Below, in pieces: positions 5,491 through 49,134 of a stretch of DNA of 64,000 nt (positions within the stretch are counted from its first letter, which is position 1; every line of letters starts with the position of its first letter). This stretch comes from Candidatus Hadarchaeota archaeon (GTDB lineage: Archaea; Hadarchaeota; Hadarchaeia; Hadarchaeales; JAGGTB01): positions 15,210 through 79,209 of the forward strand of contig CAZSNS010000001.1 of assembly GCA_964608515.1 (NCBI GenBank), given 5' to 3'. Below the pieces are notes generated by a model. The model ran no database searches. It was not told the DNA's origin and was given only the letters and a program-made list of their open reading frames with translations. Both the position numbers and the translations under genes were made by a program.

Positions 5491-5712
5491 ATGAAAAATT
5501 CTGATAAGGGGAGATTGGACGAAGTTCTTTCCTCAATACGTCCGTATCTCAATTTTCCACAAGATCTTAAAGAAGTGGTTGATGAAACGGCTGGAGAGTC
5601 TTCAAGCTTAGAAGAGTTTGAGAAAAAATTTGAAAAATTAACTTCTGAGGAAGAGGATCCAACTAAGCAAGCGGATTATCGGATTTTTCTAAATAAGCTC
5701 AGAAGCAGATAG
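5491..5712 (+). CDS. Small acidic hypothetical protein
   Basis: 73-aa ORF starting 9 nt after the Lrp stop. No recognisable motif. Confidence 0.35.
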   Translation: MKNSDKGRLDEVLSSIRPYLNFPQDLKEVVDETAGESSSLEEFEKKFEKLTSEEEDPTKQADYRIFLNKLRSR

Positions 5713-10764: not shown

Positions 10765-11247
10765 TTATGCCTCAGTACTCAACAGTATTTGATCGTTTGG
10801 CGTCCAAATCACTCTAAGCGAATCTCCAGAGCTAACACTACCGATGCCTGCAGTTTGAATATTGCTTATCTTTAGAGTGTCGCCGACCTTAAAGTCTATA
10901 TTCTCGTTTGCATATTCCTTATTTTCTCCGCCAGAAGTTAGAGTCTTAACATCTGCAGTTTCCAATGATATACCGTTGATTCTAATATCTACTTGATCAG
11001 GGGTAAATTTCTGATTATTGTTAGAACCGAAGGCTGAAAGTAAGGGATCTCCTCCGTTATGGGTTATTGTTATATTATCCGTAGTTACATCCGTATCCGG
11101 GGAAAATCCGCTGACGCCGATTCTTGCGTTTTTCGGTGCTTGTGGTGCGCTTCCGCTTAGACCTGCTGCGAGTACTCCTGCGATTACCATTACTAGTCCG
11201 ATTAGTACGATGGTTGCTACCATTGGTGATAGACCTTTTTGTTCCAT
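10765..11247 (-). CDS. Archaeal type IV pilin (Pilin_N/DUF1628 type)
   Basis: Class III signal 'MEQKG|LSPMVATIVLIGLVMVIAGVLAAG', 'ITHNGGD' core, and a C-terminal 'VIWTPNDQILL' shared with the paralogues at 15891, 16917 and 18339. Confidence 0.8.
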   Translation of the reverse strand: MEQKGLSPMVATIVLIGLVMVIAGVLAAGLSGSAPQAPKNARIGVSGFSPDTDVTTDNITITHNGGDPLLSAFGSNNNQKFTPDQVDIRINGISLETADVKTLTSGGENKEYANENIDFKVGDTLKISNIQTAGIGSVSSGDSLRVIWTPNDQILLSTEA

Positions 11248-11403
11248 TTTTTGACCTCGGGCTGGTTATTATTCTGTTGATATCTATTTTTAAACGTGAT
11301 GATGTGTTTATCAGGTTTTTTTATCGTAAATGATAATTGAAACTAGGAAAACCCAAATTTTTAAAAATACTGGGTCTTTTTCCTTTTTTTCACAAGTTAG
11401 ACC

Positions 11404-13221: not shown

Positions 13222-13245
13222 TCTCTCGGCTCTCCTTCAAAAAAC

Positions 13246-15780: not shown

Positions 15781-15840
15781 TATATAAAGGGGAATTCTTT
15801 TTTAAAAAAAAATTTCGGCACTATTTTATCAATTGATAGA

Positions 15841-15880
15841 CACAAAAAAACAAAAATAAAAAACCCCCAAAACTGGGGGG
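15841..15880 (-). terminator. Hairpin plus oligo-T terminator after the pilin gene, upstream of the ATPase gene
   Basis: Minus strand reads TAA-ACTCTCTAAT-CCCCCC-AGTTTT-GGGGG-TTTTTTATTTTTGTTTTTTTGTG. The stem is 15864-15880 and the T-tract is 15841-15863. Confidence 0.55.
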
Positions 15881-15890
15881 ATTAGAGAGT

Positions 15891-16487
15891 TTAAACTGTT
15901 TCCTCGAACAACGTTTCATCATCTGGTGTCCAGATGACTGCAACTGTATCTCCGGCACTCATTCCTGGATCAAGATTAGATATTCTGAGAAGGTCTCCCA
16001 GATAGAAATCTAAATTATCCTTAGTGGTAAAATTATCACCAGTTACACCAGAAAGATTATTAATATCAGCGTCCCATTGATCATTTTCTAGAACATAAGT
16101 GTTGTCTGATGCTCCTTCTTTTTCCTCTGTTCTAACGATAGCGGTACCATCAACGGTGGCTTTTAGTACATCAGCTGTTACTTTTTCTCCTGCGATTCTT
16201 GCTTCCATCTGATTCCAAACAACTTTGACATTATTGATTGTATTATCTGTTGGATCTACTTCAGCTTTGAGATACCATGATTCTTCGAAAGTTTTTCCTG
16301 CATCGTGGGTTAACTCTAACTGGTCACTTTCTGGACCTATTCCATCCACGCCGATTTCTGAACCTGATCCGCGTGGTTCGTCCTCTGAGCCTCCGGAGAG
16401 TCCGGCTGCGAGTACTCCTGCGATTACCATTACCATTGCTATTAGTACGATGGTTGCTACCATCGGGGAAAGTCCTCTATCTTTAAT
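15891..16487 (-). CDS. Archaeal type IV pilin (DUF1628 type), likely major pilin; predicted ATT start
   Basis: The track starts at 'MVATIVLIAMV', but the frame is open to 16490 and encodes '(I)KDRGLSPMVAT', identical to the 'DRGLSPMVAT' leader of the 16917 paralogue. GGGGGTG lies 6 nt upstream of the ATT. C-terminal 'VIWTPDDETLF'. Confidence 0.8.
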   Translation of the reverse strand: MKDRGLSPMVATIVLIAMVMVIAGVLAAGLSGGSEDEPRGSGSEIGVDGIGPESDQLELTHDAGKTFEESWYLKAEVDPTDNTINNVKVVWNQMEARIAGEKVTADVLKATVDGTAIVRTEEKEGASDNTYVLENDQWDADINNLSGVTGDNFTTKDNLDFYLGDLLRISNLDPGMSAGDTVAVIWTPDDETLFEETV

Positions 16488-16916
16488 ATTTTACACCCCC
16501 TGGGAATCCATTGGTTATTTTTTTCTTGAATTCCCCATTTAAACGTCAGGATTAGCTTATCAAAAGAGATAATAAACTCATTTCAACACGATTTTTTCTC
16601 GATAATTATTAAGCACTTCCTAAAACCTGTTCCATATAATTATTCTGGGAAGTCGATGGTCTTTTTTTCTGTAAAAAGAACTAGATTTGGAAATAAGGCA
16701 TTAAAAAATGCAGATCCGGTTTTATTGCCATTTTCTTTTCCATAATGTTACAAATGTGGTCAGAACTAGATCTATTGAAGAATAATAAATTCAAAAAATT
16801 GGAATTAGCTTAGGAAATCTTCTGACGAAAATGTGAAGATTAACTCTCTTTAAGACTTGAAATCAGAAGTTCATTGCAAAGAAGATAGGAAACCAAGTTA
16901 GTGAAATTGTTGAGAT

Positions 16917-17399
16917 TTATACCTCTTCCGTAAACAAAATCTGATCATTAGGGGTCCAAACCAGTGTGACTTCATCACCAGATTTTAACTGAGGTACCAT
17001 ATTCTCTAGCTCGAGTAGGTCACCGGCCTGAAGATCTAGTTGATTTTCTGGACCTTGTTTATGTATTCCTGCTTCGGTAGCTTTTGCCACGTCGGCTTCT
17101 ACGTTTTCTCCAGCTACTCTCAATTCTAAGTTACGCCAGACTATGTTGTCGTCACTATCCATATCGAAACTGTCTTTCAATATGTCTCCAGATTTCATAT
17201 GTATTTTGACATGGTCGCTTCCCGGTTCTAATCCTTCAATGCTCATTCCTGCTTGTCTAGGTTCGTTTTGGGTTCCTCCGCTTAGTCCGGCTGCGAGTAC
17301 TCCTGCGATTACCATTACCATTGCTATTAGTACGATGGTTGCTACCATCGGGGAAAGTCCTCTGTCGGTTTTTGGTAGTACTTTTTTGGTTCTTTTCAT
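16917..17399 (-). CDS. Archaeal type IV pilin (DUF1628 type)
   Basis: The internal ATG at 17399 gives 'MKRTKKVLPKTDRG|LSPMVATIVLIAMVMVIAGVLAAG'. The 39 upstream codons in the track are AT-rich promoter-like sequence (TTTATAAA at 17433-17440). C-terminal 'LVWTPNDQILF'. Confidence 0.8.
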   Translation of the reverse strand: MKRTKKVLPKTDRGLSPMVATIVLIAMVMVIAGVLAAGLSGGTQNEPRQAGMSIEGLEPGSDHVKIHMKSGDILKDSFDMDSDDNIVWRNLELRVAGENVEADVAKATEAGIHKQGPENQLDLQAGDLLELENMVPQLKSGDEVTLVWTPNDQILFTEEV

Positions 17400-17568
17400 A
17401 GTATTCTGCTTTAACTTGTCCGGAACTCTGTTTTTATAAATATTGTTGTATTTTTCGCTTTTGATTATCGGAATAAAACATAATTTTAACCGATAAAATT
17501 CGAATATTTTTTTCAAAATTTTTCTTTGGAGTTATAAATGAAAATTATCTAACCCTAACTGGGAAAAA

Positions 17569-18336
17569 ATGAAGATAAGATTTAAAGACAGAGTAATTCC
17601 GTTGGCTTTGTTGGCTGCTTCGATATTTATTTATATGACATATATTCTTCCAACTCTTTTAGGCACCCCTACAGCCTTAACTGCTGTGACTTCAAATTCG
17701 ATGCAACCTACTTTGGAGAGAGGGGATTTGGCGGTAATTGCGGGTTATAATGATTTTGAGGGGGTGAGTGAGAATGATATAGTTGTCTATTCTCTTGAGA
17801 ATTGGGGTTTTGTGGTTCATAGAGTTGTAAAGATTAATCCTGAAGAAGGGACTGTGAGAACGAAAGGTGATGCGAATTCTCAGATGGATAAGTGGAGTGT
17901 CGATTATAAGGATATAAGGGGGAGAGTGGTCTCTAAAATCCCTTATATAGGTTATATGGTGATGGCTGGGAAGTCGTTCTTATCTGATTTAGAGGGTTTA
18001 GGAATGCCTAGTCCGGTTTTGGGTGGGGCTCTGGCAGGTATCGCTGTGGTTTTGTTTCTTTCTGGGTTGGAGTCTCCTCCTTGGCGGGAGGGTGTGGGAC
18101 GTTCTCGTAAGGATAAGTGTAAAAGAGAAGTTACGAATTTTCTAAGTTCTGATGAGGATAAAAAGAGGGTAGATATTGATATTTCTCCTGAGAAATCTTT
18201 TTCGGCATTGAGAGAAGCTGTGAAATCTTGTGGTGTGAGTGATCAAGTGGGGGTGGTTGGGTGTGAGAATGAAGTTTATCTTGTTAAAAAAGGTGGGGGA
18301 AATATTTCAAATCTTTTGTCGTTGGATTCAGAGTAA
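17569..18336 (+). CDS. Sec11/archaeal-type signal peptidase I with extra C-terminal TM and cytoplasmic tail
   Basis: 'SNSMQPTLERGDL' (Ser box), 'VVHRVVK' (His box), 'TKGDANS'. Followed by a second TM and an ~85-aa tail. Confidence 0.8.
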   Translation: MKIRFKDRVIPLALLAASIFIYMTYILPTLLGTPTALTAVTSNSMQPTLERGDLAVIAGYNDFEGVSENDIVVYSLENWGFVVHRVVKINPEEGTVRTKGDANSQMDKWSVDYKDIRGRVVSKIPYIGYMVMAGKSFLSDLEGLGMPSPVLGGALAGIAVVLFLSGLESPPWREGVGRSRKDKCKREVTNFLSSDEDKKRVDIDISPEKSFSALREAVKSCGVSDQVGVVGCENEVYLVKKGGGNISNLLSLDSE

Positions 18337-18338
18337 GG

Positions 18339-18809
18339 TCAGATTTCTACCGATAAAAGAACTTGATTTGTGGGTGAATAAACAACGGATAATCTGTCAT
18401 TTTTTTCAAGTTGTAATTTGAAGTTAAGTTTATCTCCTGAGGTATAGGTGACCAGTCCTATTTCGTTATCTCCGTTTAGGTTTGCTTGGTCTACTGAGTT
18501 AATATTTACTTTTTCCCCGTTTTTTCTTATTTCTAAGTCTTTCCAAGCTATTTCGCCATTTTCTAGAACGAACGAGTTAGGTATGTCCCCCCCTCCCTGA
18601 TGGGATAAAGTTAGTGTGTTTTCTTCGTAATGGAGTCCTAGAGAGGGTGAAATTGAATCGCGGGGAGTTGCTTCTGGTATTAATGAGATTATGGAAGCAG
18701 CCAGGAGCATAGATAAACCTATTAATATAATAATGGCTACCATTACTGAAATTCCTGCTTCTTCCGACAAGTTCTTATCATTTTCATTTCCAATTTTAAT
18801 CAAATTCAA
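18339..18809 (-). CDS. Divergent DUF1628-type pilin
   Basis: TTG start 9 nt after GGAGG. 'EEAG|ISVMVAIIILIGLSMLLAA', 'LSHQGGGD', and C-terminal 'VVYSPTNQVLL'. Confidence 0.7.
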   Translation of the reverse strand: MNLIKIGNENDKNLSEEAGISVMVAIIILIGLSMLLAASIISLIPEATPRDSISPSLGLHYEENTLTLSHQGGGDIPNSFVLENGEIAWKDLEIRKNGEKVNINSVDQANLNGDNEIGLVTYTSGDKLNFKLQLEKNDRLSVVYSPTNQVLLSVEI

Positions 18810-18921
18810 TAGGTTACTCCTCCTACAGGGATTTTATTAAAATCGTTGGGGATTGGGAAATAATTTTAGTTTTCCACTTTCTTAGGTAATTTTTTCTTTT
18901 CATTCCTTAAGGACCCTTATA

Positions 18922-21900
18922 TCATCTGATTGAGGTGTTTATTTCTTGGGTTTGAATGTATTGGTAGACATCATTTTTCAGATCTCTTAAACCTTCGATT
19001 GAAATTCCTAGATCGTCGGTCTTTTCAGCTAAGTAATTTCTATCCTTCAAGTCTTTAACTACCTCTTCTAGATACTCAGCCCAAATCTGATTTCGACTAT
19101 GGTGAATTCCTTCTCTGATGTTTATGTCGAAATTATCTGCTCTGACTGTGTTTACTGTTTTGCTTGACGTGAAGAGGTTTAGTGGGACTGAACCGGTGAA
19201 GCTTTCCCAGGTTTCCTTTCCTCTGATTATCTTTTTGTTGAATTTAACCACTGTGAGAGGAATAGCTTCAATATGATAGTTTTCTATTTGTGGTGAGGTT
19301 GTTCCTGAATCACTATCTAAGTCCGAGGTTATTTGAACATATTTGTGAGGGTCTAACTCATCAATGCCATATTTACTCGTTCCAGAGTTCAACTGAAAAT
19401 CACCTAACCTGTCCCTTATTCTATCATCCTTAACATCGTCCAAATCCGCTCCTCTCGTCCTCCTATACAAAAGTTCAATCTCATTTTGCGACAAAGCTTC
19501 ATCAAAAATCATAAATTCATCAATAAGACCGTCAAAGTTTTCTATCATAAAATCACCAGCCGATGTGGGGATTTTACCCGTTCTATATTTTGTACCGGCT
19601 TCGGAATCATCTCTATAAAATTTCAAATATTTATTATCATAAGTGACGGCTATAAACATCCATCTATTCTCCTCCAAGTTAGCATAATTGGAGTTATCCT
19701 CCCATTTTCCGGAAAGTTCAAACCGAAGCTCATCGCCCAATGTTCTTAAAGTGTAAGCACTTTCTTTCCTTGCAAGGGTCACCGAGCGAGACAAGTTGTC
19801 GAACTGAGCCCAAAATGCTATAGTGATATTATTTTCTATGTCTAAAGAGTCATCATCTGGAACTATAAACTCATCTCCGAGTTCGAAATTTTCACCATTA
19901 TTTATTACGCCTTCATCACTTCTTTGAGTTCCATAAGTCTGTCCTTGATTGCCATTCCAAAAATCATCTCGATAATCGCTATGTGCATCTTCATCATCAA
20001 ATGTCCACCAAGATACAGGAGTTTCGGGGGGTGACGCTCCTTTAATTTCTGCTTTTATTTCTTCGTTAGAATCGATTGTTACGTCAGCGATGAGATTTTC
20101 CCAGCCCATACGCCATTTCATGGTTTTCCAAGATGTGGAATATTTTCCGGAAGTATAACCATTAGAAAGTTTTACTAAATTATCCGAAGTTTCTGTGTTT
20201 TTGAAATAACCTTTTTCCCAATCTTCTTTCAATTCCCAACTCATTTTGGAATAAGTTCCTCTATATTTTAGTTCATAAGAGTTTATTTTGAGCCTGTGAG
20301 AACTATTATCGTTTTCAAGAAGTGAAACAATCCGTACGTATTGGTGGTTTTCTGGTGCAGGTAGATTGTCCTTATACGTATTTATCCCATTTTCGAGAGT
20401 AATAGAAACACTATTATCCACATTATTTCCGTCCTGACTAACTTGTATCTTCATGGTAATTTTTTCATTTTTCCCGATTTCCACATCGGTTTTCAAGCTT
20501 CCCCAGTTCACAACATTTTCAAGATTTATCCATTCAGTTTCGTGTAAACCTGAACTATTACCTTCCTTAAGAACTAAAGAATCATTTCTAGTAACGGTAT
20601 TTTCGAAAACTCCACTAGTCCAGTCACAAGCTTGAGACCAACCGAGAACAGGATAAGGACCTTTAACATCAATTAGATTCGGTTTTTCTCTAATAAGCCA
20701 AGTATTGTCCTGATTTAAGAAAGTGCCACCTCCTTCATAGACATAAGTTTGTGATGGATATTCGACGTTTCTGGCTTGGAATTCTATTGTTCCCCAACGT
20801 TGAATTGGTGAAGCGTTTATTTTGATCCAGAAAAGGCTCGGAGTCTCAGCGGTATTTTCACCATGTAATCTCACCATGTATTGTATGTATCGATTATCTG
20901 GGAGGTGTTCGTTCTCGAAATCATTTTTATGATGTATCCATTTAGACCAATTATCAAGGTCGAGGTCTCCGTTCTCTAGATAGGGGGTGTTATCGTTTCC
21001 GGTTCTAAAGTAAACTTCCATATTGGTATTCTCCGGGGTTTTTGCTTTCCATTTTTGTTTGGTCCAGTCAATTGTTTCTCCGGCGTCGAAGGTTGATGAT
21101 TCGATAATACCTTGAGGTAAGGAAGGAACGACATATTCTATGTAAAATTCCAAATAATCTTCCATTAACAAGAAGTTTTCCTCATTATTTTCTACTAGAA
21201 GTCGGATTTTGATATTGTCTGTGGAACTGATGTAGTTTTCAGGATCAGTGAGGATGTTTTCTTTCCAAGTCTCCTCAAAGTTACTCACGTTTTCGGAATT
21301 TAAGTTCTCCCATACTGAATGGGAATAATCCCGTATTTGTAAGGTATAGCGAGCTTTGTTTTCCGATTTTAGATTCAGAGAGATTTTGATATTATCGACA
21401 AGGTATTGTTCGTTTTCGATTCTTTCAGAATCGTGACGGACGTCCAAATTATAGAAATACTGTAATGTTCGGAGCGTAGTGAGATCAATATGAATGTTTT
21501 CAGGAGATAAATCATTACCTTGAAGATCTTCGAATTTGATGCTAACGTTCTCTCCGTCAAGATATGAATTGTCAATAAAGCTAGTGACTAGTTGGTCTGT
21601 TTTGGGTAGGTTGTCTATGTATTCCCAGGAGTTTGTGGAGTTGTTCCAGACGTAGATTCCGAAGTTTTCTCCGGTGTCTGAGTATCCTTTTATTCTTATT
21701 TGGTATGCGTCTGCGTTGTCTGGTATTCCGGTCATTCTGTGTTCCCAGCGGAGGTAGTTTCCAATGTTTTCGCTCTTTATTCTCGAATAGTCTACTAATA
21801 ATTGGGTTTCGTTGAGGTCGTTTTCTAATTGTTTGTATCTTATGTGAACGTTATCGTTTTGGACGTAATCCTTGTCTAGTAGTTGGTTGAAGTTTTCTAG

Positions 21901-36900: not shown

Positions 36901-37665
36901 GTTTTTTGTGTTTCCCTCGTGGATTGTTTCGTCTTGTACGTATCTGAATTTTGGAGGGATTGTGTTTTCGCTAATGTTTTCGTAAACTCCGTTTGGGGTT
37001 TGGGCGTTTTCGTAGTTTGTTGTGCCGGGGTCTCCTAATTGTTTGAGTCCGGTGATTAGGGGGTCGGGTTCTAAACTTACCGGATAATCCGTATTTTCTG
37101 AAATATAATCCGGTACGACTTCGTAATAATTTCCATCGTTAGAATCTAGATAATTTGTACTGGTAAGGTTTTCACCTTTTATTAACCTAGTCTTATTTTC
37201 GTCAAGGTTGTCTGGGTCGGGTCTGATTCCGTTTTCCAAAATTACACTGCCAGTGGCTTCGTTTTCACCGAAGGTATAATTTTCAGGTTTTTCTGGAGGT
37301 TTTACTATTTGTGAGGGGATACCTGTTTTAATTATCCAGTTTTCTTGAATCCATGATACATCTTTTCTCCTCAGTTGTGGGTCTATTAAAATCCTGCCGG
37401 ATCCTTTGGCTCCGGGCACTAAAGGCCCGGTCTTACTGTACATGGGTATGGATGTGCCTACTGATTCTCCTTCGGTCAAGTTTTCGATACTATTTTGTAT
37501 TTGTGTGAAACGTTCGGAAACTTCCTCCATCGTTTCTCCCTCGGATTTGTGAATTTCCGATTCCATGTAATTGGGATACCAAGTTATGAAAAAAAGAATA
37601 GCTATACTTATAGCGACAAGCGCAGCTGTAACAGCTACTTGTCCCCGTTGCCTGGAGAATACCAT
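18922..37665 (-). CDS. Giant (6,247 aa) pilin-like modular surface protein, a putative mega-adhesin
   Basis: A single uninterrupted 18,744-nt frame in AT-rich DNA. N-terminus 'MVFSRQRG|QVAVTAALVAISIAILFF'. Contains 13 LamG/ConA-like domains (motif '..G.IDE[VF].I[FY].R.L[ST]..E'), 2 GEVED, 1 PA14, H-type-lectin-like repeats, and 11 copies of an unnamed ~100-aa module. Confidence 0.95.
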   Translation of the reverse strand: MVFSRQRGQVAVTAALVAISIAILFFITWYPNYMESEIHKSEGETMEEVSERFTQIQNSIENLTEGESVGTSIPMYSKTGPLVPGAKGSGRILIDPQLRRKDVSWIQENWIIKTGIPSQIVKPPEKPENYTFGENEATGSVILENGIRPDPDNLDENKTRLIKGENLTSTNYLDSNDGNYYEVVPDYISENTDYPVSLEPDPLITGLKQLGDPGTTNYENAQTPNGVYENISENTIPPKFRYVQDETIHEGNTKNFPNAQADNNAYENIYEKNYGGIDNLYENKTTIENGTEVPGTTTDYLDTDDGQYYEVDSSFWTENTDYPVSLEPDPLITGLKQLGDPGTTNYENAQTPNGVYENISENTIPPKFRYVQDETIHEGNTKNFPNAQADNNAYENIYEKNYGGIDNLYENKTTIENGTEVPGTTTDYLDTDDGQYYEVDSERVIKSFDNLFFDSLSDWTGEGWDTSITPYKTPGTLKLLGENAQGVWKFEENQGHVAHDNTDWNNDGTILAGDYWWDTQTDWEDGTYLPDIATGLNPGDISLIAENTQGLWKFDEGTGHTAHDNTDYNNHGTILSKPSWNSQSDWLKGSWNTGITPYKNTGSLQLLGENARSIWKFEENQGPTAYDNTDWNNDATIMAGEHEWDNQTEWKNGTYLPDIATGLNPGDISLIAENTQGLWKFDEGTGHTAHDNTDYNNHGTILSKPSWNSQSDWLKGSWNTGITPYKNTGSLQLLGEDGQGIWKFEENQGHIAKDNTNWNNHGTILAGDYLWNTQTEWKNGTYGPDVATGLNPGSISLTAENMQAFWKLDEGSGHTVHDKTDRNNHGPIRSQPQWSSQSDWLEGSWNTGITPYKSSGSISLKGEDLAGFWKFEEINGGTVNDQTSHGNDGSLSLSSTSWDKHSDWESGTFVDTTTTGSSIALDTPMEKLEDVDIDASLYCSSGDGGNDDDWIRRVEFNTINIQSEPGPDTTDGYEDHTDAITSVRRGNSYTITVTIGMSDSWTQYGRVWIDWDHDGSLESEEATDLGSTSSDGGTVSGTITVPNDAVGGPTLMRVSEKYYEYPSSCEDMSWGEVEDYTVYVGERRDADVNASSYCSSGDEGNDDDWIRRVEFNTINWASEPGPDTTDGYEDFTDIVTPVTRGESYNITVTIGLESSWTQYGRVWIDWDQDGSLESGEATDLGSTDTDGGTVSGTITVPNDAVGGPTLMRVSEEFNGYPSSCETMNFGEVEDYTVYVNFHHGTGTHTSEWRDVGARKADWRNLETTTTLGGSGSVSVDVQVDDDGNHSSGVTTETISLDDGKNSYSISNLPNGRYVRLVSDLSTSDTSVSPRVHSLDVNYYPYTDGKCGSAVRSKKNTTFMESGQVNLSTTIDGGTVNTVNLDHNFTDPVVVAFIETRNGGQSIDVRVRNVTSNSFEIFMEEPDDQGHSSEDIGYIVMEEGDHVLSDGTKIEAGHLETSSVHRGGESFGGETVNFSHSFSTAPALLHTVNTYNNGWFTSSVANSLSSNSFQLELEIGESRKTTISENIGWIAFEDIGGKGYANVTDYHVDKHPTDGNNDGVDDSSETFSYSFSSAPDVVIDGYTGTGVDGYWARGAGTYNSSETTYYAEEDQVGDSERGHADTGFSTVAIQQGTSGEINTGDYVDLGSISNWDPDTGTSTISLWFKTPDATPSQQMALFSDYWGPEMGIWLKTDGTLCGYAYDSVCTSSAISADTWHHAALTFDVEDNWAKFYVDGAKVGERNISIGNGLSDTPYYVGADPYGPRYFFNGEIDEVKIFDRALSINEIKSLWSSGTAYYPFEETSGSTVYDNFGNNDGTINGASRESGGSYGRSLSFAGDDYVEVPDDSTLNLSNNLTVEAWIRPTSVSSGEQFIASKYDYSNVEGYSLGLNDSNVLFKVYGDGSRYSVESSTNLSANNWYHVMGVYNGTDLKIYINGQEDSNTSSGPSSITATANPLRIGMPGDSTSSTYGYHGKIDEVGIYARPLTPQETGYMAKDELAHIKNNIWRSKIYDFEKPMEWDDLYINASIGSGETIEARVQSSTDEFSSIAGDTGWFSVNDGSNDISSLTPARYGRVSFRLSTNDTRNTPSLSFFELQCYRSSSWTKGKYDNGLHFTSWNDYVDTGWSNSQGQSYTFSAWFNKKNDGQIVGGNPPQYSGLSLYVDGSNLVFNSNNGNSTGRVSASLGTSNWYHGVGIADVGAGELKLYINGSLEATETGWNGNYASESSIKIGTDDVSYPEWNYTGTIDEVQIFDRALTHSETQKLYNTEFMAMNYEWYETSTYYSNNSHPSTESEFDEFFNDKNNGVTFGGHGSWAREQIRWHDSSWNAKPTYLPADGYAWKAEGHIYAPESGTYTFAIDSDDASDLFIDGTNVANWYGGHGIANDWSHNGTISLSKGYHKIKVRMEEGGGGDGVRIGWQKPSDSSISLMVEDFNDIRNAFHTTNHYDFGRKVEWKQFEWDTTIESGEDVKAKIQVSNDGFSSIQDETGWLNLESETSPYTITQLDNARYVRIKTRLLSNNSTHSPAVHDYRISAYGSFNWEKGKCGTGLFFDGKDDRVNVPDDSSVSFGETGEEMTVSFWVYPKDLSEEVGILQKSSEYLINQEDGGKIWIRTWGGNNGGTSSAVLSEDEWQHVTVTWDVGSGGSIYYNGEKIQDYSNSDTSSETNNPLHIGKSTWGNFNGKIDEVQIFNRELTGSEVKSLWSTGTAYYPFEASSGSTILDNFGNNNGTNNGATRTSAGYYGRSLDFNASGDIVEIPDDTSLDLESYTYSFWIKPQEGPTGSWRQVMIKGDGPTGGGRTPGVWLRPDDMGLHVKHSTASGSQVGPTQTGTVPVGEWTHVIINSTGDSGTISVYLDGTLDSQTNHSADLVTNNQNLHIGNSPDYNGVDAMIDEFQVYPRSLTPSEINSLAHDELAHIKKNVWRSKVYDFENPMDWDNLVINASLNGETIEAKVQSSSDDFSTVDGDTGWFTVSDGVNDISSLTTARYGRVFFKLSTTDSRNTPILNNFELQCYRPNNWVTGYYGEALEFDGRGDYVEVPDSSSLDTDKITMAAWIKTSASGTSNMVMNKEGTYEMAAGTDGISLAINASGCSSWCNGWMFSGEGSINADEWTFVATTWDGDVGKGYINGSHVVTVDPSEGDGNIVNTDRNLGIGARDVDGTPSSFFNGEIDEVNIFERDLTTSEIQKLYENELYTIENGFHITKNYDYEQTVSWNTLEARSTIDSNEDIRAKVQVSDDAFSTIKDETSWLNLTDGTSTKDLSGLSDSRYVRVKSRLLTDSSLHSPVLRNYSLSTYGSHNWTPGKCGVGMEFDGKDDYGALQNSYTYFPDGITVSAWIKTTDPTGIIASYDRSEIFRFGVGSSGTNGKVTWNTDDGSGVDDMSGSIDVDDGEWHHVTATYNPDTSTKKIYVDGTLDSEKSWGGNSLGDGTTRYGFMATGSEASSYDGDRGPHEYFNGKIDEFQIFERPLTQNEVKSLWSTGTAYYPFETSSPTTAYDNYGNNDGAINGATRTSAGYYGSSLNFDGVDDHVKVTEDVLKSGNTATISARVYVDGAGDTSWNRFVDVQDGSNGDTMTLYWDADDDIYGFSTFDGNATVSGEAIPQGEWIHLVGVYDAPNSEARFYLDGDLKATASVSQSFGSEKLSIGDRYDSPGTDPIDGRIDEVKIFNKALSPNEINTLAHDELAHIRKNIWRTKIYDFETPTDWDNLYIEASIDTGETIEARVQTSTDEFVTIKDDTGWMNLSNGSNDISTLPDARYGRVFFRLSTNDSRHTPILNSFELQCHRPNNWTTGKYDNGIFFNGKWDYTRINNSPSLTSINDEITITAWFKRQGSAGGEDASGYHGIVRGINGDGWYPRVLVDSDGSGILFQYRTGGGTESLHATSGVNFGIGEWHQIIIRKDSTGTEIYFDNTLITSDSTMTNTMDTGSSDLLIGSGATPNKHYMTNGVIDEVQLFDRSINRTEISKIYENELYTIKDGSHTTHSHDFGRKVEWKQLEANATIASGENIEAKVQVSNDGFSTIEDETGWITLNDGITTDALSGLSDARYIRINSHLTTDYSTHSPALHYYNIETYGSHNWTTGKIGTGLFFDGKDDYMVKNPVNTFPSNEITASFWMNSSNTSKNGTPISYAVSGSNNEFLIFDYNSFRIYINGSYVDTGVSANDGNWHHITVTWRSSDGSTKLYKDGSLEYSGTLKSGYSLESGGSLVLGQEQDSVEGGFDIGQAFLGKLDDTQIFNRVLTENEIKSLWSTGTIYYPFESGSGSTVHDNFGNNQGTINDGTRIKGGQYGQSLDFDGVDDSVSIPKSTSLDKAVSEAPVTISFWFYIENQNVNWSNYVSWQVKQPDGDTYTIRTETVSDSIKGIYTRWIAEDESNGLNTSDGGFWARNTDMGVNLGEWNHYTGVYDGSEVREYVNGNLEASRTISANLADLNGEITLRGNDIEHTIDEFQIYNAALTPEEIRKISHDELAHIKKNRWKSSPHNFGEKVEWDNLKVTANIPENTSASITLQVSDNSFQTVKDNITKSLTDGTNTYDISSLKDARYIRISELTLSTEDSRDTPTINDITINCHYFRYSLDLYHDSEKISGAQSDIENIKLTLNLKSENRADYTWQIYNWNTPAWENLQTTNINGSEKTFENTITSNPTNYVSNNENLRVRLIGENQKKSFRSQEDYLQYRINYTAFRMDVQHNITEIPKGDNYTLQIEHYIDGDASEIGNLLSEWKMNEGEGTTIYDTADGNDGTINGATWTEGKYNQALEFDGSDDYVEISDTQPYAGSGEEFSISFWIKSSDTSTNNNAFIGNYHSTSGQTPFFMIGFDGSDAWTWLRDAGGTEAKVTTSQSNILDGTWHHIVGVRDQSTNEIKFYVDGKLRATSSDTTDDVSYQDNIYLMDHYESYTQGTLDDVKIYERALTTEEVKQLYGDTINVYIENNSGGWNSIGSLSSTNLENFTYPVDSSHILGDNVRIRYVQEENDFEETNLMVDYSRIKSENIGNYLRWEHRMTGIPDNADAYQIRIKGYSDTGENFGIYVWNNSTNTWEYIDNLPKTDQLVTYPIDNTYFDGENVSIKFDDETGNDLSPENIYIDYSSVRSTYYHYYLDLFHDSEQVSVAPDTIENIKLTLNLKSENQANYTWQIYNWNTPAWENLQTTNINGSEKTFENTIVTNIADYISGNDNIRVRLIGENMTTPFRSQEDYLLYKINYPAYRMDVQHNIGEIPKGDNYTLQIEHYLAGDSENVEVYLENFKSGNWNKTGTLTSNTLENFNQLLDKDYVQNDNVHIRYKQLENDLNETQLLVDYSRIKSENIGNYLRWEHRMTGIPDNADAYQIRIKGYSDTGENFGIYVWNNSTNSWEYIDNLPKTDQLVTSFIDNSYLDGENVSIKFEDLQGNDLSPENIHIDLTTLRTLQYFYNLDVRHDSERIENEQYLVDNIKISLNLKSENKARYTLQIRDYSHSVWENLNSENVSNFEETWKENILTDPENYISSTDNIKIRLLVENNEENFLLMEDYLEFYIEYVVPSLPQGIIESSTFDAGETIDWTKQKWKAKTPENTNMEVYFRTGNDNTPYLENGDLDLDNWSKWIHHKNDFENEHLPDNRYIQYMVRLHGENTAETPSLFWIKINASPIQRWGTIEFQARNVEYPSQTYVYEGGGTFLNQDNTWLIREKPNLIDVKGPYPVLGWSQACDWTSGVFENTVTRNDSLVLKEGNSSGLHETEWINLENVVNWGSLKTDVEIGKNEKITMKIQVSQDGNNVDNSVSITLENGINTYKDNLPAPENHQYVRIVSLLENDNSSHRLKINSYELKYRGTYSKMSWELKEDWEKGYFKNTETSDNLVKLSNGYTSGKYSTSWKTMKWRMGWENLIADVTIDSNEEIKAEIKGASPPETPVSWWTFDDEDAHSDYRDDFWNGNQGQTYGTQRSDEGVINNGENFELGDEFIVPDDDSLDIENNITIAFWAQFDNLSRSVTLARKESAYTLRTLGDELRFELSGKWEDNSNYANLEENRWMFIAVTYDNKYLKFYRDDSEAGTKYRTGKIPTSAGDFMIENFDGLIDEFMIFDEALSQNEIELLYRRTRGADLDDVKDDRIRDRLGDFQLNSGTSKYGIDELDPHKYVQITSDLDSDSGTTSPQIENYHIEAIPLTVVKFNKKIIRGKETWESFTGSVPLNLFTSSKTVNTVRADNFDINIREGIHHSRNQIWAEYLEEVVKDLKDRNYLAEKTDDLGISIEGLRDLKNDVYQYIQTQEINTSIR
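18925..19265 (-). other. Giant protein C-terminal core segment homologous to 44151..44915
   Basis: 'HHSRNQIWAEYLEEVVKDLKDRNYLAEKTDDLGISIEG' versus 'THRKTTEAWENYLEVRKDELTQEGYDVQADGLKLTINS'. Confidence 0.55.
19460..20015 (-). other. LamG13, inserted inside an 'RY[VGI]R'-type module
   Basis: 'PVSWWTFDDEDAHS...GLIDEFMIFDEALSQNEIELLYRR', flanked by the two halves of a module. Confidence 0.7.
20640..20805 (-). other. Giant protein middle core segment homologous to 44151..44915
   Basis: 'WGTIEFQARNVEYPSQTYVYEGGGTFLNQDNTWLIREKPNLI' versus 'YGYLEFAANNFFYSDQTYIYESGAVVVSENNSWMRSSPTLI'. Confidence 0.55.
21130..23970 (-). repeat. C-terminal 313-aa super-repeat: copy 1 interrupted by LamG12, copy 2 complete, copy 3 partial
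   Basis: DNA offset is 939 bp (21602 vs 22541) and 1563 bp (22201 vs 23764). About 150 bp is perfectly identical around 21630-21780 vs 22570-22720. Confidence 0.85.
22906..23525 (-). other. LamG12, inserted inside super-repeat copy 1
   Basis: 'IEHYIDGDASEIG[NLLSEWKMNEGEGTTIYD...GTLDDVKIYERALTTEEVKQLYGDT]INVYIENNSGGW' versus the uninterrupted 'IEHYLAGDSENVEVYLENFKSGNW'. Confidence 0.8.
24265..32770 (-). other. LamG array: LamG1-11 interleaved with ~100-aa 'RY[VGI]R' modules, organised as about 4 super-repeats
   Basis: Recurrent junctions: 'SLWS[ST]GT.YYPFE' (4x), 'HDELAHI[KR][KN]N' (4x), 'K[LI]YENELYTI' (2x). Confidence 0.85.
30385..30870 (-). other. PA14 domain
   Basis: 'YLPADGYAWKAEGHIYAPESGTYTFAIDSDDASDLFIDGTNVANWYGGHG...GYHKIKVRMEEGGGGDGVRIGWQKP'. 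Confidence 0.75.
32780..33590 (-). other. Three H-type-lectin-like beta-sandwich repeats
   Basis: 'NLDHNFTDPVVVAF...VRNVTSNSFEIFMEE', 'VNFSHSFSTAPALLHTV...SLSSNSFQLELE', 'ETFSYSFSSAPDVVIDGY'. Confidence 0.5.
33961..34875 (-). other. Two tandem GEVED domains
   Basis: 'YCSSGD..DDDWIRRVEFNTIN...YGRVWIDWD.DGSLES...GGPTLMRVSE....SSCE.M.[WF]GEVEDYTVYV' occurs twice (about 34425-34875 and 33961-34410). Confidence 0.75.
34900..36310 (-). repeat. Seven ~63-aa Trp-rich units (alternating A/B types, pair period 381 bp)
   Basis: Units start 'G[VLI]WKF[DE]E..G..A.DNTD.NN.GTI'. 35468-35664 is identical to 35849-36045. Confidence 0.85.
36343..37098 (-). repeat. In-frame tandem duplication, period 384 bp (128 aa), 372 bp perfectly identical
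   Basis: 36343-36714 is identical to 36727-37098. Encodes 'NTDYPVSLEPDPLITGLKQLGDPGTTNYENAQ...DDGQYYEVDS' twice. Confidence 0.9.
37366..37665 (-). other. Giant protein aa 1-100: class-III-signal / pilin-like N-terminal module
   Basis: Aligns with the N-terminus of the 44151..44915 protein: RG, a hydrophobic helix, 'YPxY', 'F..IQ..', 'EGE', 'PLV...K.G'. Confidence 0.6.
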
Positions 37666-37849
37666 TTCTTATCAGTTCCTAAAACGCGATATAAACCTTT
37701 AGTACTCATATACATCTTTTGCATTGTAAACCTTTTCTAATTCTTTTTACACTCAAAAACAATTAATTCTTTCAAGACCTGAATGACTTCTGTAAATCTA
37801 TAAAAACTAGACAAGTGGAATTTGCAAGATAAGGGATTAAATAATAGTT

Positions 37850-38311
37850 TTACTCATATTCGGGTCTCATCAAAATATTCTTGTCAGTAATTATAGTATT
37901 AGTAGTGGATTTATATTTCAAAACCAAATGATAATATTTTCTAGGTTCTAGCTCGACTCCATTGTCCGAAGTCCGATAAATTTTTACCTCTTCCGCTCGC
38001 GTAAACTCGTCGTTCGGATCTTGATCGCTCAAAGCCTGATTGTCTTTCCCTAACTTATTATTCGATGTTGTGGGGTTTATAAAAGAAGTTGCGCTGTCTC
38101 TGCCTTCGGTGACAGAGATTCTCAACTCTTTCCAAACAAGATCGTCTCCTCCATTGTGGGCCATTTTAATCGCTTTTCCCTCTGACGTAAGTTGAATATC
38201 GGCTCGAGGTCTAGTATTAAAAATAAAAATTCCACCTATGAGAATGATACCCAAGACCAGTCCCATAAGTAAAATCAGTGCTTTATTTCCTTCCAAGAAC
38301 AATATTTTCAC
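37850..38311 (-). CDS. Pilin-like small exported protein (DUF1628-core-like)
   Basis: 153 aa. N-terminal hydrophobic helix 'ALILLMGLVLGIILIGGIFIF', 'MAHNGGDDLVWKELRISV' core motif as in the pilins. Directly upstream of the giant gene. Confidence 0.55.
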   Translation of the reverse strand: MKILFLEGNKALILLMGLVLGIILIGGIFIFNTRPRADIQLTSEGKAIKMAHNGGDDLVWKELRISVTEGRDSATSFINPTTSNNKLGKDNQALSDQDPNDEFTRAEEVKIYRTSDNGVELEPRKYYHLVLKYKSTTNTIITDKNILMRPEYE

Positions 38312-38428
38312 CTCTCTTAAACATAATTTTTAAATTATCAGCTTATTTACCGTCCTTCAATGATACCTGCTCTTTTTCTGTTAAGTTTTTGTAAAAGTCG
38401 TCCAACAAATACATATTCTCCAGATTTT

Positions 38429-41392
38429 CTAAGATTTTCTGACAAGGTAAAGCTTTCCATCCTTCTCCTTTACCCCGACTACATTCTCCCCACCCAGTTC
38501 TCTAATCGTAGACCTAACGGATTTCATAGCTTGTCTGAGAGGCATTTTCGTCTTTATCCCTGCCTGTTTTTTCCCTGATTTTAAGAACTTTTTAATAGTG
38601 GTAGCCCATTTCTTCTTCCTATCCATTTTTTTACCTCCCTTAGTACTTCTTTCCTTTTTCGCTTCGCTTCCGCCGCCGAGTTCTAACCAGCCGGTAAATA
38701 TTAACAGAGCGAAAACAACGGCTATAGCCCCTGCTGCTATTCCTCCAATAAGGAACCAATTAAGCCCTGTTCCCTCTTTGTATGTCATGTTTTCTTTTGC
38801 TTCATCGGAAAGATTTGAATAAAGTTCGTTTTTCTCGTCTTCTTTTAGAGTTTCTGATTCGAATATTTCGTCTTTAGTTGTGCTTGATAGTTTTTTGAAA
38901 ATTTCGTCCAGTTCTTCAAATTTTTCTTGTGTTATTAGAGCTCTTACCGTTCTCACGGTTTCTTCTGTAGTCATTGAGCTGAGTAAATCCGCGGCTTTTG
39001 CGGGGGTTTCCGGTAATCCTGAAACTTCTAAAATGATGTCCACTCTTGTTGGAATGTTCATAGCTGTAAGTATTTCCCCAGCCAAGGGGCTGTTAATTGT
39101 CACTGCTTCCTCCATTACTCTTGCGGCGGGGTTGATATCAGCATCTGCTAGACTAGTTGCTGCTTCTTCTGCGTCAGCTTGGAGAATCATATTTGCTAAG
39201 GCGTTTGTTTGTTCTGCTTCTACTCCGTTGTTGATGAGTTGTGTTAATGTGCCCATCGTGAACTGGGCTGTTTCGGTAGACCAGCTTCCCCAAGTGTCGT
39301 TGGCGTAGTATCTCGTCCGCCAATGGTAGGTCTGTTCGGCTTCAAGACTGTCTCCGCCGTATACTATTTCGTACCTATCGTCAGGCGTTACTGATATGTT
39401 TTGCTCGGTATAATCCCACATTTCAGCACCATTTTCACTTGTGCCCACTTGGATTTGTATCCTACTTGCTGAGGTATCATTCGGAACAACATATTTTGAA
39501 GATAAAGTCGGTTTTGGAACTTTGACACTTGATGGATTTTCCACCCCTTCCGTTTCGAGATTTTCCGGTGGGAGTGGCGGTCTTGTAGGTGGGATAACTT
39601 TTACATTTGTTGTCTTGTAATCTGAATCGGGAATTGAGTCATTTGAAACTTTTAGCTTAACTTTAACTGTTACAGGATTATTCACTTGTTCAGGGGCGTG
39701 GAATTTGCAATTTATACTATTTTCTTTGGTTAATTTCGCTTCGTTTGTAGGATCTTCTGTAATACTCCAATTATATCTTTTTATATCTCCACTGCTTTGA
39801 GTTCCGTCAAGAGTTAGACTCTGATCTTCCAAAACCTCATAAGGACCGTTGGGTCTAGCGACGAGAGCATCTTTTATTATTACTTCGAAAGTCTCTGAAC
39901 TACTATCATTCTCCCCATCGGTAACAGTTAATTTTAACTCCACTGTTTTGTCGTTTTCTAATCCGTCTAGAGCGTGAAATGCTGGAGTAGGGGAATTATC
40001 ACTAGTTAAGTACGCTTCTCCCGTGGGGTCTTCGATAATTTTCCACTTAAAACTTAGATCATCCCCCTCACTATTTGTTCCATCAAGAGAAATACTCTGA
40101 TTTTCAACCACTTTATAAGGACCGTCAGGTTCGGCGACTACCCTATTTTTAACCTTTACTTCTGTGGCTTTTGAGTGAGCTTTATCGTTTTCATCCGAAA
40201 CTGTCAACTCTACAGTTACCCGTTGCGAGGTTTTGACGCTACCTTCCGCCAGAAAAGTAGGAGTGTCAGTATCTGCTTCCACTAACCGAGCCCCTCCAGT
40301 CGGATCATCCGTTATACCCCATTCATAATTATCAATATAACCGCTACTATCTGCCCCATCAAGAGGAACACTTCCACCCTCCACCACTCTATACGGACCA
40401 TCTGGCCTGGCTTGGAGCTTGTCCCTCACCTTTATTTTGACAATTTCACTATCCGATTCACCATCTTGAGAAACACGCAGTCTGACCTTGATTGTCTTGT
40501 CTTCATTCACCTCTTCGGGGGCAAAAAACCTAGCGTTTTCCTTATCCGCCATATCAATGTCCGCATTGTCCGTAGGGTCATATGCTCTCGTCCAGAAATA
40601 ATTATCGATTTCACCACCATCAGCACCACTACTTTCACCTCCCTTTAACAGAATATTTTCATTTTCACCCATAGAATCAGCAACATCAGGTTTAGCTACC
40701 AACTGATCTTTTATTTCGACTTTTGTAGTTTCCGAGTCCACATGTGTTCCATTATCTACGACGAGTCTAACTTTTACATTTCCATCCTCTGTAACCATTG
40801 GAGCTTGTAATTTAGGATTCGTTTCACTCTTGCTAGAAAATTGAACATTATCGGACCCCGCTTCCTTAGAAAAGTTTTTCTCTTTAAAAGTCCAAGTATA
40901 TTCAAGCCCATTTCCTCCTCCGCTACTATCCTCTCCATATAACGTAACATTATCTCCTTCCACAACCTCATAAGGTCCATTAGGGCGAGATAAAAGCTCG
41001 TCTTTTATTTTAACGGTGGTTTTATCCTCATCCATCACATCGTTTTCATTCCAAACTTTCAATTTTACAGTTACTTCTCTGTTTCCATCAACCTCTTTAG
41101 GGGGAAGAAAGGTTGGTGTTAGAGTACTTTCTCCATCTAAATCAGAACCATAATCCTCCCCGTCGATTTTCCAAACAATCCCATCTTCCACGTAATTTTC
41201 AGATCCTGTCCCGGAGAGCGTTACTGTCTCATCGATTTTATCAGGATTTTCACCTTCACTAACATAATAAGTATCCTTGTCAATTTCAGCGTGCGGACTC
41301 CCCGCTAAGGCAACGGGGATCTGAAGTGATAAAATTATAAGTATGACTAGGGTTATGACGACTGTCAGTTTTGCTGGGGGAGATTTATTCAA
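38429..41392 (-). CDS. PKD/Ig-like repeat type I membrane protein with basic cytoplasmic tail
   Basis: 987 aa. Sec signal 'LSLQIPVALA|GSP'. Six ~95-aa repeats ('[AS]RP[DN]GPY.VVE...L.G..S.G....Y.W.I'). An FN3-like domain ('YHWRTRYYANDTWGSWS'), a helical region, TM 'WFLIGGIAAGAIAVVFALLIF', and a Lys-rich tail. Confidence 0.85.
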   Translation of the reverse strand: MNKSPPAKLTVVITLVILIILSLQIPVALAGSPHAEIDKDTYYVSEGENPDKIDETVTLSGTGSENYVEDGIVWKIDGEDYGSDLDGESTLTPTFLPPKEVDGNREVTVKLKVWNENDVMDEDKTTVKIKDELLSRPNGPYEVVEGDNVTLYGEDSSGGGNGLEYTWTFKEKNFSKEAGSDNVQFSSKSETNPKLQAPMVTEDGNVKVRLVVDNGTHVDSETTKVEIKDQLVAKPDVADSMGENENILLKGGESSGADGGEIDNYFWTRAYDPTDNADIDMADKENARFFAPEEVNEDKTIKVRLRVSQDGESDSEIVKIKVRDKLQARPDGPYRVVEGGSVPLDGADSSGYIDNYEWGITDDPTGGARLVEADTDTPTFLAEGSVKTSQRVTVELTVSDENDKAHSKATEVKVKNRVVAEPDGPYKVVENQSISLDGTNSEGDDLSFKWKIIEDPTGEAYLTSDNSPTPAFHALDGLENDKTVELKLTVTDGENDSSSETFEVIIKDALVARPNGPYEVLEDQSLTLDGTQSSGDIKRYNWSITEDPTNEAKLTKENSINCKFHAPEQVNNPVTVKVKLKVSNDSIPDSDYKTTNVKVIPPTRPPLPPENLETEGVENPSSVKVPKPTLSSKYVVPNDTSASRIQIQVGTSENGAEMWDYTEQNISVTPDDRYEIVYGGDSLEAEQTYHWRTRYYANDTWGSWSTETAQFTMGTLTQLINNGVEAEQTNALANMILQADAEEAATSLADADINPAARVMEEAVTINSPLAGEILTAMNIPTRVDIILEVSGLPETPAKAADLLSSMTTEETVRTVRALITQEKFEELDEIFKKLSSTTKDEIFESETLKEDEKNELYSNLSDEAKENMTYKEGTGLNWFLIGGIAAGAIAVVFALLIFTGWLELGGGSEAKKERSTKGGKKMDRKKKWATTIKKFLKSGKKQAGIKTKMPLRQAMKSVRSTIRELGGENVVGVKEKDGKLYLVRKS

Positions 41393-44111: not shown

Positions 44112-44150
44112 AAGTTTATATTTGTGATTAAGTTTTTGGAAGTTATAAGA

Positions 44151-48330: not shown

Positions 48331-48346
48331 TCTAAATCACCTCTTA

Positions 48347-49123: not shown

Positions 49124-49134
49124 TCTCTCACCTC

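Follow-up and report, generated by a model that had tools for sequence, protein, structure and literature searches.

Can a protein of more than six thousand residues be a pilin? The question is raised by a 64,000-nucleotide stretch of DNA from a Candidatus Hadarchaeota archaeon (assembly GCA_964608515.1, contig CAZSNS010000001.1, positions 15,210 to 79,209; below referred to as the window), in which a block of type IV pilus-like genes encloses an uninterrupted open reading frame (ORF) for a product of 6,247 amino acids (698.8 kDa, pI 4.4). An earlier note on this DNA had read the giant protein as a pilin-type substrate of the surrounding machinery, displayed as a lectin-rich adhesin. A split DUF7289 domain, a signal motif found throughout the family and the recurrence of the same gene cassette around related proteins all support this reading at the level of sequence, and more strongly than the prepilin-like N-terminus on which the note had relied. 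The frame of 18.7 kb is intact, as had been claimed, and its prepilin-like start fits the family-wide motif. Judged from sequence comparison and a structural model, the giant is a DUF7289-family pilin-like protein in which two loops of the predicted head are enlarged by 5,519 and 464 residues.

The pilin-like core of the giant protein

The window also encodes a small DUF7289 protein (263 amino acids). When this paralogue was compared with the giant by BLASTP, two collinear matches were obtained: its residues 17–100 correspond to residues 7–90 of the giant (35% identity, E = 1e-12) and its residues 109–152 to residues 5624–5668 (40% identity, E = 5e-8). A spliced core of 264 residues was therefore assembled from residues 1–101, 5621–5670 and 6135–6247 of the giant. 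An exhaustive search of 1.84 billion representative proteins with this core yielded 90 proteins at E ≤ 1e-3, with end-to-end matches to proteins of 250–300 residues. For example, residues 6–262 of the core match residues 4–262 of P0011 (264 amino acids) with E = 1.8e-28. In an alignment of 38 sequences G127 and W212 (core numbering) are invariant and E42, E125 and P143 nearly so, and the giant has them all, including the family's Glu after the transmembrane (TM) helix, its 'Y.YE.GG' motif and its C-terminal Trp. With a profile of this alignment, core included, 320 proteins were found; of the 120 listed, most are annotated as PF23960, the Pfam family of DUF7289.

With the 38-sequence alignment, AlphaFold2 predicted the spliced core with a pLDDT of 93.4 and a pTM of 0.88; the 263-residue paralogue alone, as a single sequence, gave a pLDDT of 36. 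The model consists of a helix of 59 residues (3–61) followed by a 13-stranded beta-sandwich, the helix-plus-beta-head arrangement expected of a pilin, and both splice junctions, 101/102 and 151/152, fall between strands. Since the homology is split and the three pieces, once joined, act like one complete domain, the giant is best understood as an intact DUF7289 domain with insertions in two of its loops. Run against the Protein Data Bank (PDB), the DUF7289 family profile has archaeal pilins as its best matches, which are sub-threshold and non-significant. The small paralogue likewise gives matches below threshold to Pilin_N (E = 0.02), TIGR02537 (E = 0.044) and the N-terminus of UpsA (E = 0.003).

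A class III signal was defined here as a leader whose last two residues are [KRDE][GA], with a hydrophobic helix of about 20 residues after it at the extreme N-terminus, a pattern reportedly introduced by Szabo et al. in 2007. The giant starts with 'MVFSRQRG/QVAVTAALVAISIAILFFITWY' (the slash marks the end of the leader) and has this organization, its 'RQRG/QVAVTAALV' fitting the archaeal class III pattern. When the N-termini of the giant and 89 relatives were aligned, 81 had a residue aligned to Gly8 of the giant, and in 80 of these 81 it was G or A. At position −2, 51 proteins have R or K; at position +1, V or I occurs in 73 and Q in four. The consensus is D-E-R-G/V-S-x-V-L-G-A, followed by the TM helix. 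A scan of the whole protein found a single hydrophobic segment, at the N-terminus (residues ~7–34), and beyond its 21-residue hydrophobic stretch there is no AXA-type site.

The first and larger insertion contains two 128-residue repeats that are 100% identical, about seven repeats of 63 residues, two GEVED domains, a weak H-type lectin match, one PA14 domain, about 12 LamG domains and three units of ~320 residues with GH114_assoc-like domains. In both insertions together there are 13–14 LamG domains alternating with 11 copies of a beta module of ~95 residues; pentaxin-like and sialidase-lectin-like matches were also found. The copies of this beta module lie between residues 1257 and 6144 (one of them, residues 2017–2111, is encoded at window positions 31333–31617) and end with the motif '...ARY[GI]R[VI]...L.T.D...TP.L..[FY].[LI]'. 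The module matched no Pfam family above threshold, the weak match being F5/8-type-C-like (E = 0.018), and its motif also opens two unrelated fragments, P0066 and P0067.

How common such expansions are was seen in a census of the 90 nearest representatives (the giant and 89 relatives), which are a part of PF23960 and not the whole family. Thirty of the 89 relatives have at least 700 residues, the longest 1,916, the giant being more than three times longer than this longest relative found. In most relatives of at least 700 residues the match to the core is split into a stretch of ~100 residues at the N-terminus and another comprising the final ~160, and their extra sequence is therefore apparently located at the first insertion site of the giant. 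CBM96 and/or DUF2341 (PilY-associated) domains are present in the insert of four of the six longest relatives scanned (including P0032, P0036 and P0047), and the expanded relatives P0032 and P0023 match PF23960 above the cutoff.

The pilus locus and its counterparts

Window proteins were scanned with Pfam and NCBIfam profiles at the curated cutoff of each model. All genes that had been claimed for the block were found in place and on the right strand, in exact agreement with the ORF map (Table 1), and the profile matches confirm the assignments of the platform, the ATPase, the Sec11-type signal peptidase and the PKD-repeat protein. With a PilB3-type ATPase with extended termini, a platform encoded by a single gene and PilA-like (DUF1628) pilins, the block belongs to the PilB3-type clusters of archaeal type IV pilus genes, the euryarchaeal 'clade 2' of Makarova, Koonin & Albers (2016) and 'system 2' of Sivabalasarma & Albers (2026). 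The platform additionally shows ArlJ/UpsF-like matches below the cutoff. The ATPase begins with an extension of ~330 residues (1–330 of the product) that is highly acidic, Gly-rich and coiled-coil; it is kept in a related contig, L001, and absent from the ATPases (553–612 residues) of homologous cassettes.

Table 1. Genes of the locus and segments of the giant protein by window position, followed by the genes next to expanded relatives of the giant
Feature	Position	Strand	Evidence or remark
PilA-like pilin 1, 160 aa	10765..11247	-	Pilin_N (PF07790, ex-DUF1628) E=5e-8, above cutoff; TIGR02537
Platform, single gene, FlaJ/TadC/PilC-like, 605 aa	11404..13221	-	T2SSF E=1e-29, two T2SSF stretches
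PilB3-type secretion ATPase, 844 aa	13246..15780	-	T2SSE, PilB3_N and PilB3_C
PilA-like pilin 2	15891..16487	-	Probable ATT start at 16487, not ATG at 16463
PilA-like pilin 3	16917..17399 (ORF reaching 17516)	-	Pilin_N E=2e-6, above cutoff; likely ATG at 17399
Archaeal-type signal peptidase I	17569..18336	+	TIGR02228, 75.3 bits (cutoff 51.85)
Divergent pilin 4, 156 aa	18339..18809	-	Pilin_N E=4.5e-4, 21.4 bits, below cutoff of 25.2
Giant DUF7289-family modular pilin-like protein, 6,247 aa	18922..37665	-	ORF of 18,744 nt
Giant, core piece 1, aa 1-101	37363..37665	-	Class III signal 'RQRG/QVAV', long alpha-1 helix, first two beta strands
Giant, insertion 1, aa 102-5620, 5,519 residues	20806..37362	-	Self-comparison and iterated hidden Markov models
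Giant, core piece 2, aa 5621-5670	20656..20805	-	Family motif 'QTYVYEGGG'; 40% identity to paralogue
Giant, insertion 2, aa 5671-6134, 464 residues	19264..20655	-	Beta modules and one LamG domain
Giant, core piece 3, aa 6135-6247	18925..19263	-	C-terminal half of DUF7289 beta-sandwich, invariant Trp
Divergent pilin-like protein	37850..38311	-	Pilin_N E=0.006 (weak); alignment with pilins; directly upstream of giant gene
PKD/Ig-repeat surface protein, 987 aa	38429..41392	-	K319L-like_PKD and Ig_Rha78A_N
KaiC/RecA-like ATPase	43314..44111	+	AAA_25 and KaiC matches
Small DUF7289 paralogue, 263 aa	44124..44915	+	PF23960 E=1.7e-8, 34.8 bits (cutoff 27)
Expanded relative P0083, 1,916 aa			Neighbours: PilB3 ATPase, T2SSF, Pilin_N, DUF7289, KaiC-like, ParA/MinD
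Expanded relative P0032, 1,659 aa			Neighbours: PilB3 ATPase, T2SSF, Pilin_N, DUF7289, KaiC-like
Expanded relative P0036, 1,754 aa			Neighbours: Pilin_N, DUF7289, T2SSF, PilB3 ATPase, ParA/MinD
Expanded relative P0005, 956 aa			Neighbours: Pilin_N, DUF7289, T2SSF (contig ends)
Expanded relative P0065, 1,380 aa			Neighbours: Pilin_N, DUF7289, KaiC-like, ParA/MinD (contig ends)
Expanded relative P0047, 1,494 aa			Neighbours: two further DUF7289 genes, KaiC-like, ParA/MinD

The recurrence of these neighbours links the family of the giant to the machinery. Directly upstream of the expanded homologues a Pilin_N gene was found in five of six cases; the T2SSF platform is present in four of the six, three of these four also having the PilB3-type ATPase, and KaiC-like and/or ParA/MinD genes are present in five. 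Thus pilin, platform and ATPase genes do recur next to expanded homologues, although for the giant itself no orthologue was found in the databases searched. The ATPases of these cassettes (including L011 and L012) are 47–56% identical to the ATPase of the window, and the order of the gene at 37850–38311 and the giant gene is the 'pilin then DUF7289' order of the homologous cassettes. Homologues of the KaiC-like gene occur in 19 of the related loci and adjoin DUF7289 genes at P0083, P0032, P0047 and P0065.

Two of the pilins of the block score above the Pilin_N cutoff and three others are related to them by alignment. Four pilins had been said to share their N- and C-terminal motifs. This is true of three, which have near-identical first 35 residues, the C-terminal motif 'V[IV]WTP.D' and 41–46% overall identity (46% between pilins 2 and 1), but not of the fourth, which has diverged and shows 'VVYSPTN' there; the fourth and the fifth are more distant. 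The gene of this fifth, further pilin-like protein is present as described, but its match to the family is only weak. Pilin 1 has the class III signal 'MEQKG/LSPMVATIVLI' and weakly matches the archaeal pilus subunit 8fj5_A, and its gene is conserved in L001. Pilin 4 has a TTG start preceded by a Shine-Dalgarno-like AGGAGG.

Pilin 2 deserves a comment, as its called ORF (15891–16463) has no Pfam match and begins inside the signal peptide. It is seemingly leaderless because the ORF caller accepts only ATG, GTG or TTG as start codons. Upstream of the first ATG the in-frame codons read stop-N-I-K-D-R-G-L-S-P-M (16463–16500, minus strand), and a Shine-Dalgarno-like GGGGGTG is located 6 nt 5' of an ATT at 16487. 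The in-frame KDRGLSP codons and the ATT preceded by this element therefore restore a class III leader, 'KDRG/LSPMVATIVLI', and the true start of pilin 2 is probably this non-canonical ATT. The 3' side of the gene is marked by a terminator-like hairpin with a T-run (15879–15864). In general, scans of the window for sigma-70 promoters and terminators stayed at background level; it should be noted that sigma-70 promoters are not applicable to archaea.

Role of the giant protein

We consider it fairly probable that the giant is a DUF7289 minor pilin of this PilB3-type system, likely displayed at the tip as a glycan adhesin. From this we infer cleavage, tip location and glycan binding as follows. 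The giant would be exported co-translationally through Sec, with its one N-terminal helix keeping it in the membrane, and a prepilin peptidase of the PibD/FlaK type, whose gene would lie elsewhere, would cut it after Gly8. Its intact pilin module would then prime the filament or join its first layer, and PilA-like pilins polymerizing below would raise the lectin array, which would act as a polyvalent glycan-binding tip adhesin. The 5,519-residue array would have to close as a loop or hairpin because its ends leave and re-enter one loop of the head. The ~14 LamG domains and the PA14, GEVED and H-lectin-like modules suggest that this archaeon, from an uncultured lineage about which little is known, attaches polyvalently to glycans on particles, on partner cells or in a biofilm matrix.

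A bolder version of this proposal, to which we give slightly less than even chances, is that the 0.7-MDa protein is a type IV pilus tip subunit processed by prepilin peptidase, that it is the largest pilin known, and that the DUF7289 loop at residue ~100 is a 'display socket'. The loop after core residue ~100 would then be an evolutionary hot-spot that takes up modules for adhesion whatever their size. Bacterial tip adhesin-pilins would have their archaeal counterpart in DUF7289, and the type IV machinery would set no upper limit to the size of the first subunit.

Several observations weigh against the giant being such a minor pilin. By direct scan it is below the Pfam cutoff for DUF7289: the spliced core reaches 17.2 bits versus the required 27, and the giant scanned in three pieces gave no PF23960 match at E ≤ 0.01. 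Nor does it match Pilin_N (PF07790) or TIGR02537. A Foldseek search of the PDB with the core model found no solved pilin that is alike (best E = 0.04, TM-score below 0.2). Genes for a prepilin peptidase (peptidase A24) and for MinD are both absent from the 64-kb window. For the peptidase this had already been stated, and it is confirmed, since all ORFs with multiple TM segments are otherwise explained; FeoB, an ArsP_2 exporter and others were considered as hidden prepilin peptidases and rejected. Outside the window, two small DUF7289 genes have no ATPase gene within 10 kb and lie beside the gene of a 515-residue Pilin_N protein, and a strong (E < 1e-10) DUF7289 gene was found in the available flanks of only ~11 of 80 PilB3-type metagenome loci, many of these loci being short. 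The association of DUF7289 with pili is thus recurrent but not obligatory. Finally, that the array returns to the loop it left is an unusual topology for ~5,500 residues and might interfere with packing, and a tip of 0.7 MDa would need to pass the cell envelope or sit outside it.

It should also be considered that the giant has no orthologue in the databases searched. Its N-terminal 105 residues had no match in an index of 5.8 billion proteins, in which the cluster representative is a C-terminal fragment of 651 residues. Apart from the giant itself, a search with the C-terminal 687 residues found only one expanded DUF7289 protein (P0005) and LamG proteins that are unrelated. A genome scan with the ATPase gave one close relative, L001, labelled as a Ca. 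Hadarchaeota metagenome-assembled genome (MAG), with 92% identity in the ATPase and conserved ATPase-platform-pilin-exporter synteny; it is uninformative on the giant gene because the contig ends just upstream of the ATPase gene. The corresponding metagenome scan found relatives at 40–49% identity only.

Among the alternatives, the one that survives best, which we nevertheless regard as unlikely, is that the giant stays at the cell: processed or merely anchored, it would be carried by a very short pseudopilus or a bindosome-like stub, or lie directly in the membrane beside the platform, and would serve as a cell-bound adhesin for glycans or a matrix protein of the envelope, not as the tip of a long pilus. 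The giant has one N-terminal hydrophobic helix and no other anchor, small DUF7289 genes are often paired with KaiC-like ATPases rather than with pilins, and moving a 0.7-MDa head through the S-layer would be a steric problem. There is also a precedent in the substrate-binding proteins of bindosomes, which use class III signals without long filaments and are proposed to be widespread (bioRxiv 10.64898/2026.04.22.720090). However, the pilin-like module of the giant is intact and constrained (pLDDT 93, family residues kept), neither of which is needed in a mere anchor. The four or five PilA-like pilin genes around the giant gene, one of them with a terminator-like hairpin, imply a real filament, and the pilin gene directly ahead of five of the six expanded homologues argues in the same direction.

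Much less probable is an ordinary Sec-exported surface adhesin with an uncleaved signal-anchor, handled by signal peptidase I of the locus or other factors independently of the pilus machinery, whose position in a pilus cluster is incidental. The gene of signal peptidase I is only ~600 bp away from the 3' end of the giant gene, very large adhesins carrying lectin or Ig repeats commonly occur outside pilus loci, and the giant has no direct match to Pilin_N or DUF7289 above cutoff. But that three separate segments should rebuild a DUF7289 domain, with E values down to 1.8e-28 to members of the family, is difficult to reconcile with it; so are the leader, which fits the class III motif of the family with no AXA-type site after the hydrophobic stretch, and the repeated occurrence of expanded homologues inside pilin/platform/ATPase cassettes. 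The peptidase, moreover, is absent from 83 of 83 related loci and hence is no partner of the family.

The reality of the frame could be questioned because the source is a metagenome-assembled genome and the gene has long internal repeats. One is a tandem duplication of 384 bp, 100% identical (window 36343–37098), which encodes the two identical 128-residue repeats and reflects either a very recent expansion or, possibly, an uncertain copy number in the assembly; two more arrays have periods of 381 and 465 bp and are 84–85% identical. In an independent assembly of the same organism, GCA_905333185.1, a 3.8-kb contig breaks inside the gene. That assembly, though, matches the C-terminal 651 residues at 100% identity, and both GCA_905333185.1 and run ERR5414701 contain the 3' end of the gene without a difference. 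Chance cannot account for an open frame of 18.7 kb, or 6,247 codons, in DNA of 39% G+C, and a promoter-like TATA element, TTTATATC, is located ~20–30 nt 5' of the ATG. That repeats were mis-joined or expanded, or that the gene is decaying and no such protein is made, is hardly credible when the three core pieces follow one another collinearly and in frame and are predicted to fold as one domain once spliced; the number of repeat copies may still be wrong, which would not alter the conclusion.

The reading of the giant as a DUF7289 minor pilin has to be seen in relation to known systems. DUF7289 is probably arCOG02911, judged by its fit to the published description of that family: FlaFind-positive, all-beta proteins of 250–550 residues, prone to duplication, common to both euryarchaeal clade 2 types and predicted to be minor pilins (PMC4858521). 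The giant shares with them the class III motif, the all-beta head, the duplication (two copies in the window), the variable length and the company of PilA-like pilins, a PilB3/PilB4-type ATPase and TadC; it differs in its 6,247 residues, the extra length being in two loop insertions. Large adhesin-like or PilY-like proteins, too, were already noted in archaeal system 2 loci (bioRxiv 10.64898/2026.04.22.720090). Like these the giant is encoded inside a pilus locus and predicted to function in adhesion. DUF2341 proteins have been predicted as PilY-type tip adhesins (PMC4858521); unlike its relatives with DUF2341 or CBM96, the giant has neither domain and carries arrays of LamG, PA14, GEVED and pentaxin-like modules instead. 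In view of arCOG02911 (PMC4858521) and of these large proteins (bioRxiv 10.64898/2026.04.22.720090), the earlier suggestion of novelty was too strong. The type of locus is known; new are the scale, the recurrence of an insertion hot-spot and the recognition that the giant is a pilin module of the DUF7289 family interrupted by insertions.

Compared with the PilB3-PilC3 pilus of Haloferax volcanii (PilA1-6), the system has in common an ATPase with PilB3_N and PilB3_C, a single-gene platform and DUF1628/Pilin_N major pilins. However, the pilB3 locus of H. volcanii is without pilins (PMC4858521), whereas here four to five pilins, the minor pilin, the PKD protein and signal peptidase I are clustered, and the ATPase described here has in addition the acidic extension of ~330 residues.

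Grafting as in the type IV pili of Streptococcus sanguinis had been suggested as a parallel. The idea of a modular pilin holds: in S. sanguinis PilB (vWA) and PilC (ConA-like lectin), as in CofB, ComZ and GspK, a pilin module carries modules for display (PMC8179133, PMC9934059). But in the giant the modules sit in loops of the pilin head and not at the end as in PilB and PilC; in this respect it resembles ComZ and GspK, where an extra domain is inserted into the pilin beta-sheet (PMC8179133). With these bacterial pilins it shares modules of the lectin type (ConA-like/LamG) and a place at the tip expected on steric grounds, the bulky modules of bacterial modular pilins fitting only at filament tips (PMC8179133). 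Differences are that the pilin family of the giant is archaeal and unrelated, that ~45 modules rather than one or a few are inserted, and that function has been demonstrated for PilB and PilC, whereas that of the giant is predicted. The most extreme multi-domain bacterial modular pilin in a survey of 2021 has 860 residues (PMC8179133). The giant is ~7 times as long, and would be by far the largest pilin-like adhesin found in this analysis.

If the giant is assembled on a pilus, the extracellular size of pilins would be essentially unconstrained. This would bear on how platform and ATPase recognize and extract a subunit, for which the N-terminal helix alone would have to suffice, and on how tips cross the archaeal envelope. 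DUF7289 would gain a concrete and testable role as an adhesin-display scaffold, and its defined insertion hot-spot could be used to display cargo on archaeal pili.

Signal peptidase, PKD protein and archaellum genes

The Sec11-type peptidase had been listed with the pilus genes of the block. It is not a conserved part of such systems: a homologue was found in 0 of 83 related pilus loci, which excludes signal peptidase I as their conserved, dedicated processing enzyme and makes it a lineage-specific addition. The enzyme contains 'SNSMQPT', 'VHRVV' and 'KGDAN', which we take to be the catalytic Ser, His and Asp boxes, and it has an extra C-terminal TM segment with a tail of ~60 residues that it shares with the PKD protein. 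In each of the two, ~62 residues follow the TM helix (24% identity, pairwise E = 7e-7); the sites, 18106–18291 (plus strand) and 38435–38620 (minus strand), are reciprocal best matches in the window translated in six frames. The tail, which has no Pfam family, may be a common cytoplasmic docking domain. The PKD protein has a Sec-type signal of the AXA type, '...VALA/G', and a C-terminal TM anchor, and looks like an S-layer-like accessory. Because of the common tail and the AXA-type signal, the PKD protein is a more plausible client of the peptidase than the pilins are.

The KaiC/RecA-like gene is followed, 12 bp on, by the small DUF7289 gene (43314–44915, plus strand), and the same pair recurs beside PilB3-type loci. 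Its neighbours here are an archaellin gene on one side and FlaJ of the archaellum on the other, so that pilus and archaellum genes are interleaved. The two archaellin genes (42339–42981 and 59430–60072) form an inverted repeat with arms 91–95% identical and ~16.4 kb apart, which encloses the entire archaellum operon together with several regulators; the segment between the arms could be invertible. Each archaellin gene is followed by a homologous small ORF (41567–42091 and 60176–60583). The archaellum operon (46633–50841, minus strand) has two tandem FlaI/ArlI paralogues of 565 and 568 residues that are 57% identical, followed by only one FlaJ gene. Between the two paralogues a Lys/Glu-rich protein of 258 residues is encoded (48347–49123), inside which a segment of ~36 residues is perfectly duplicated.

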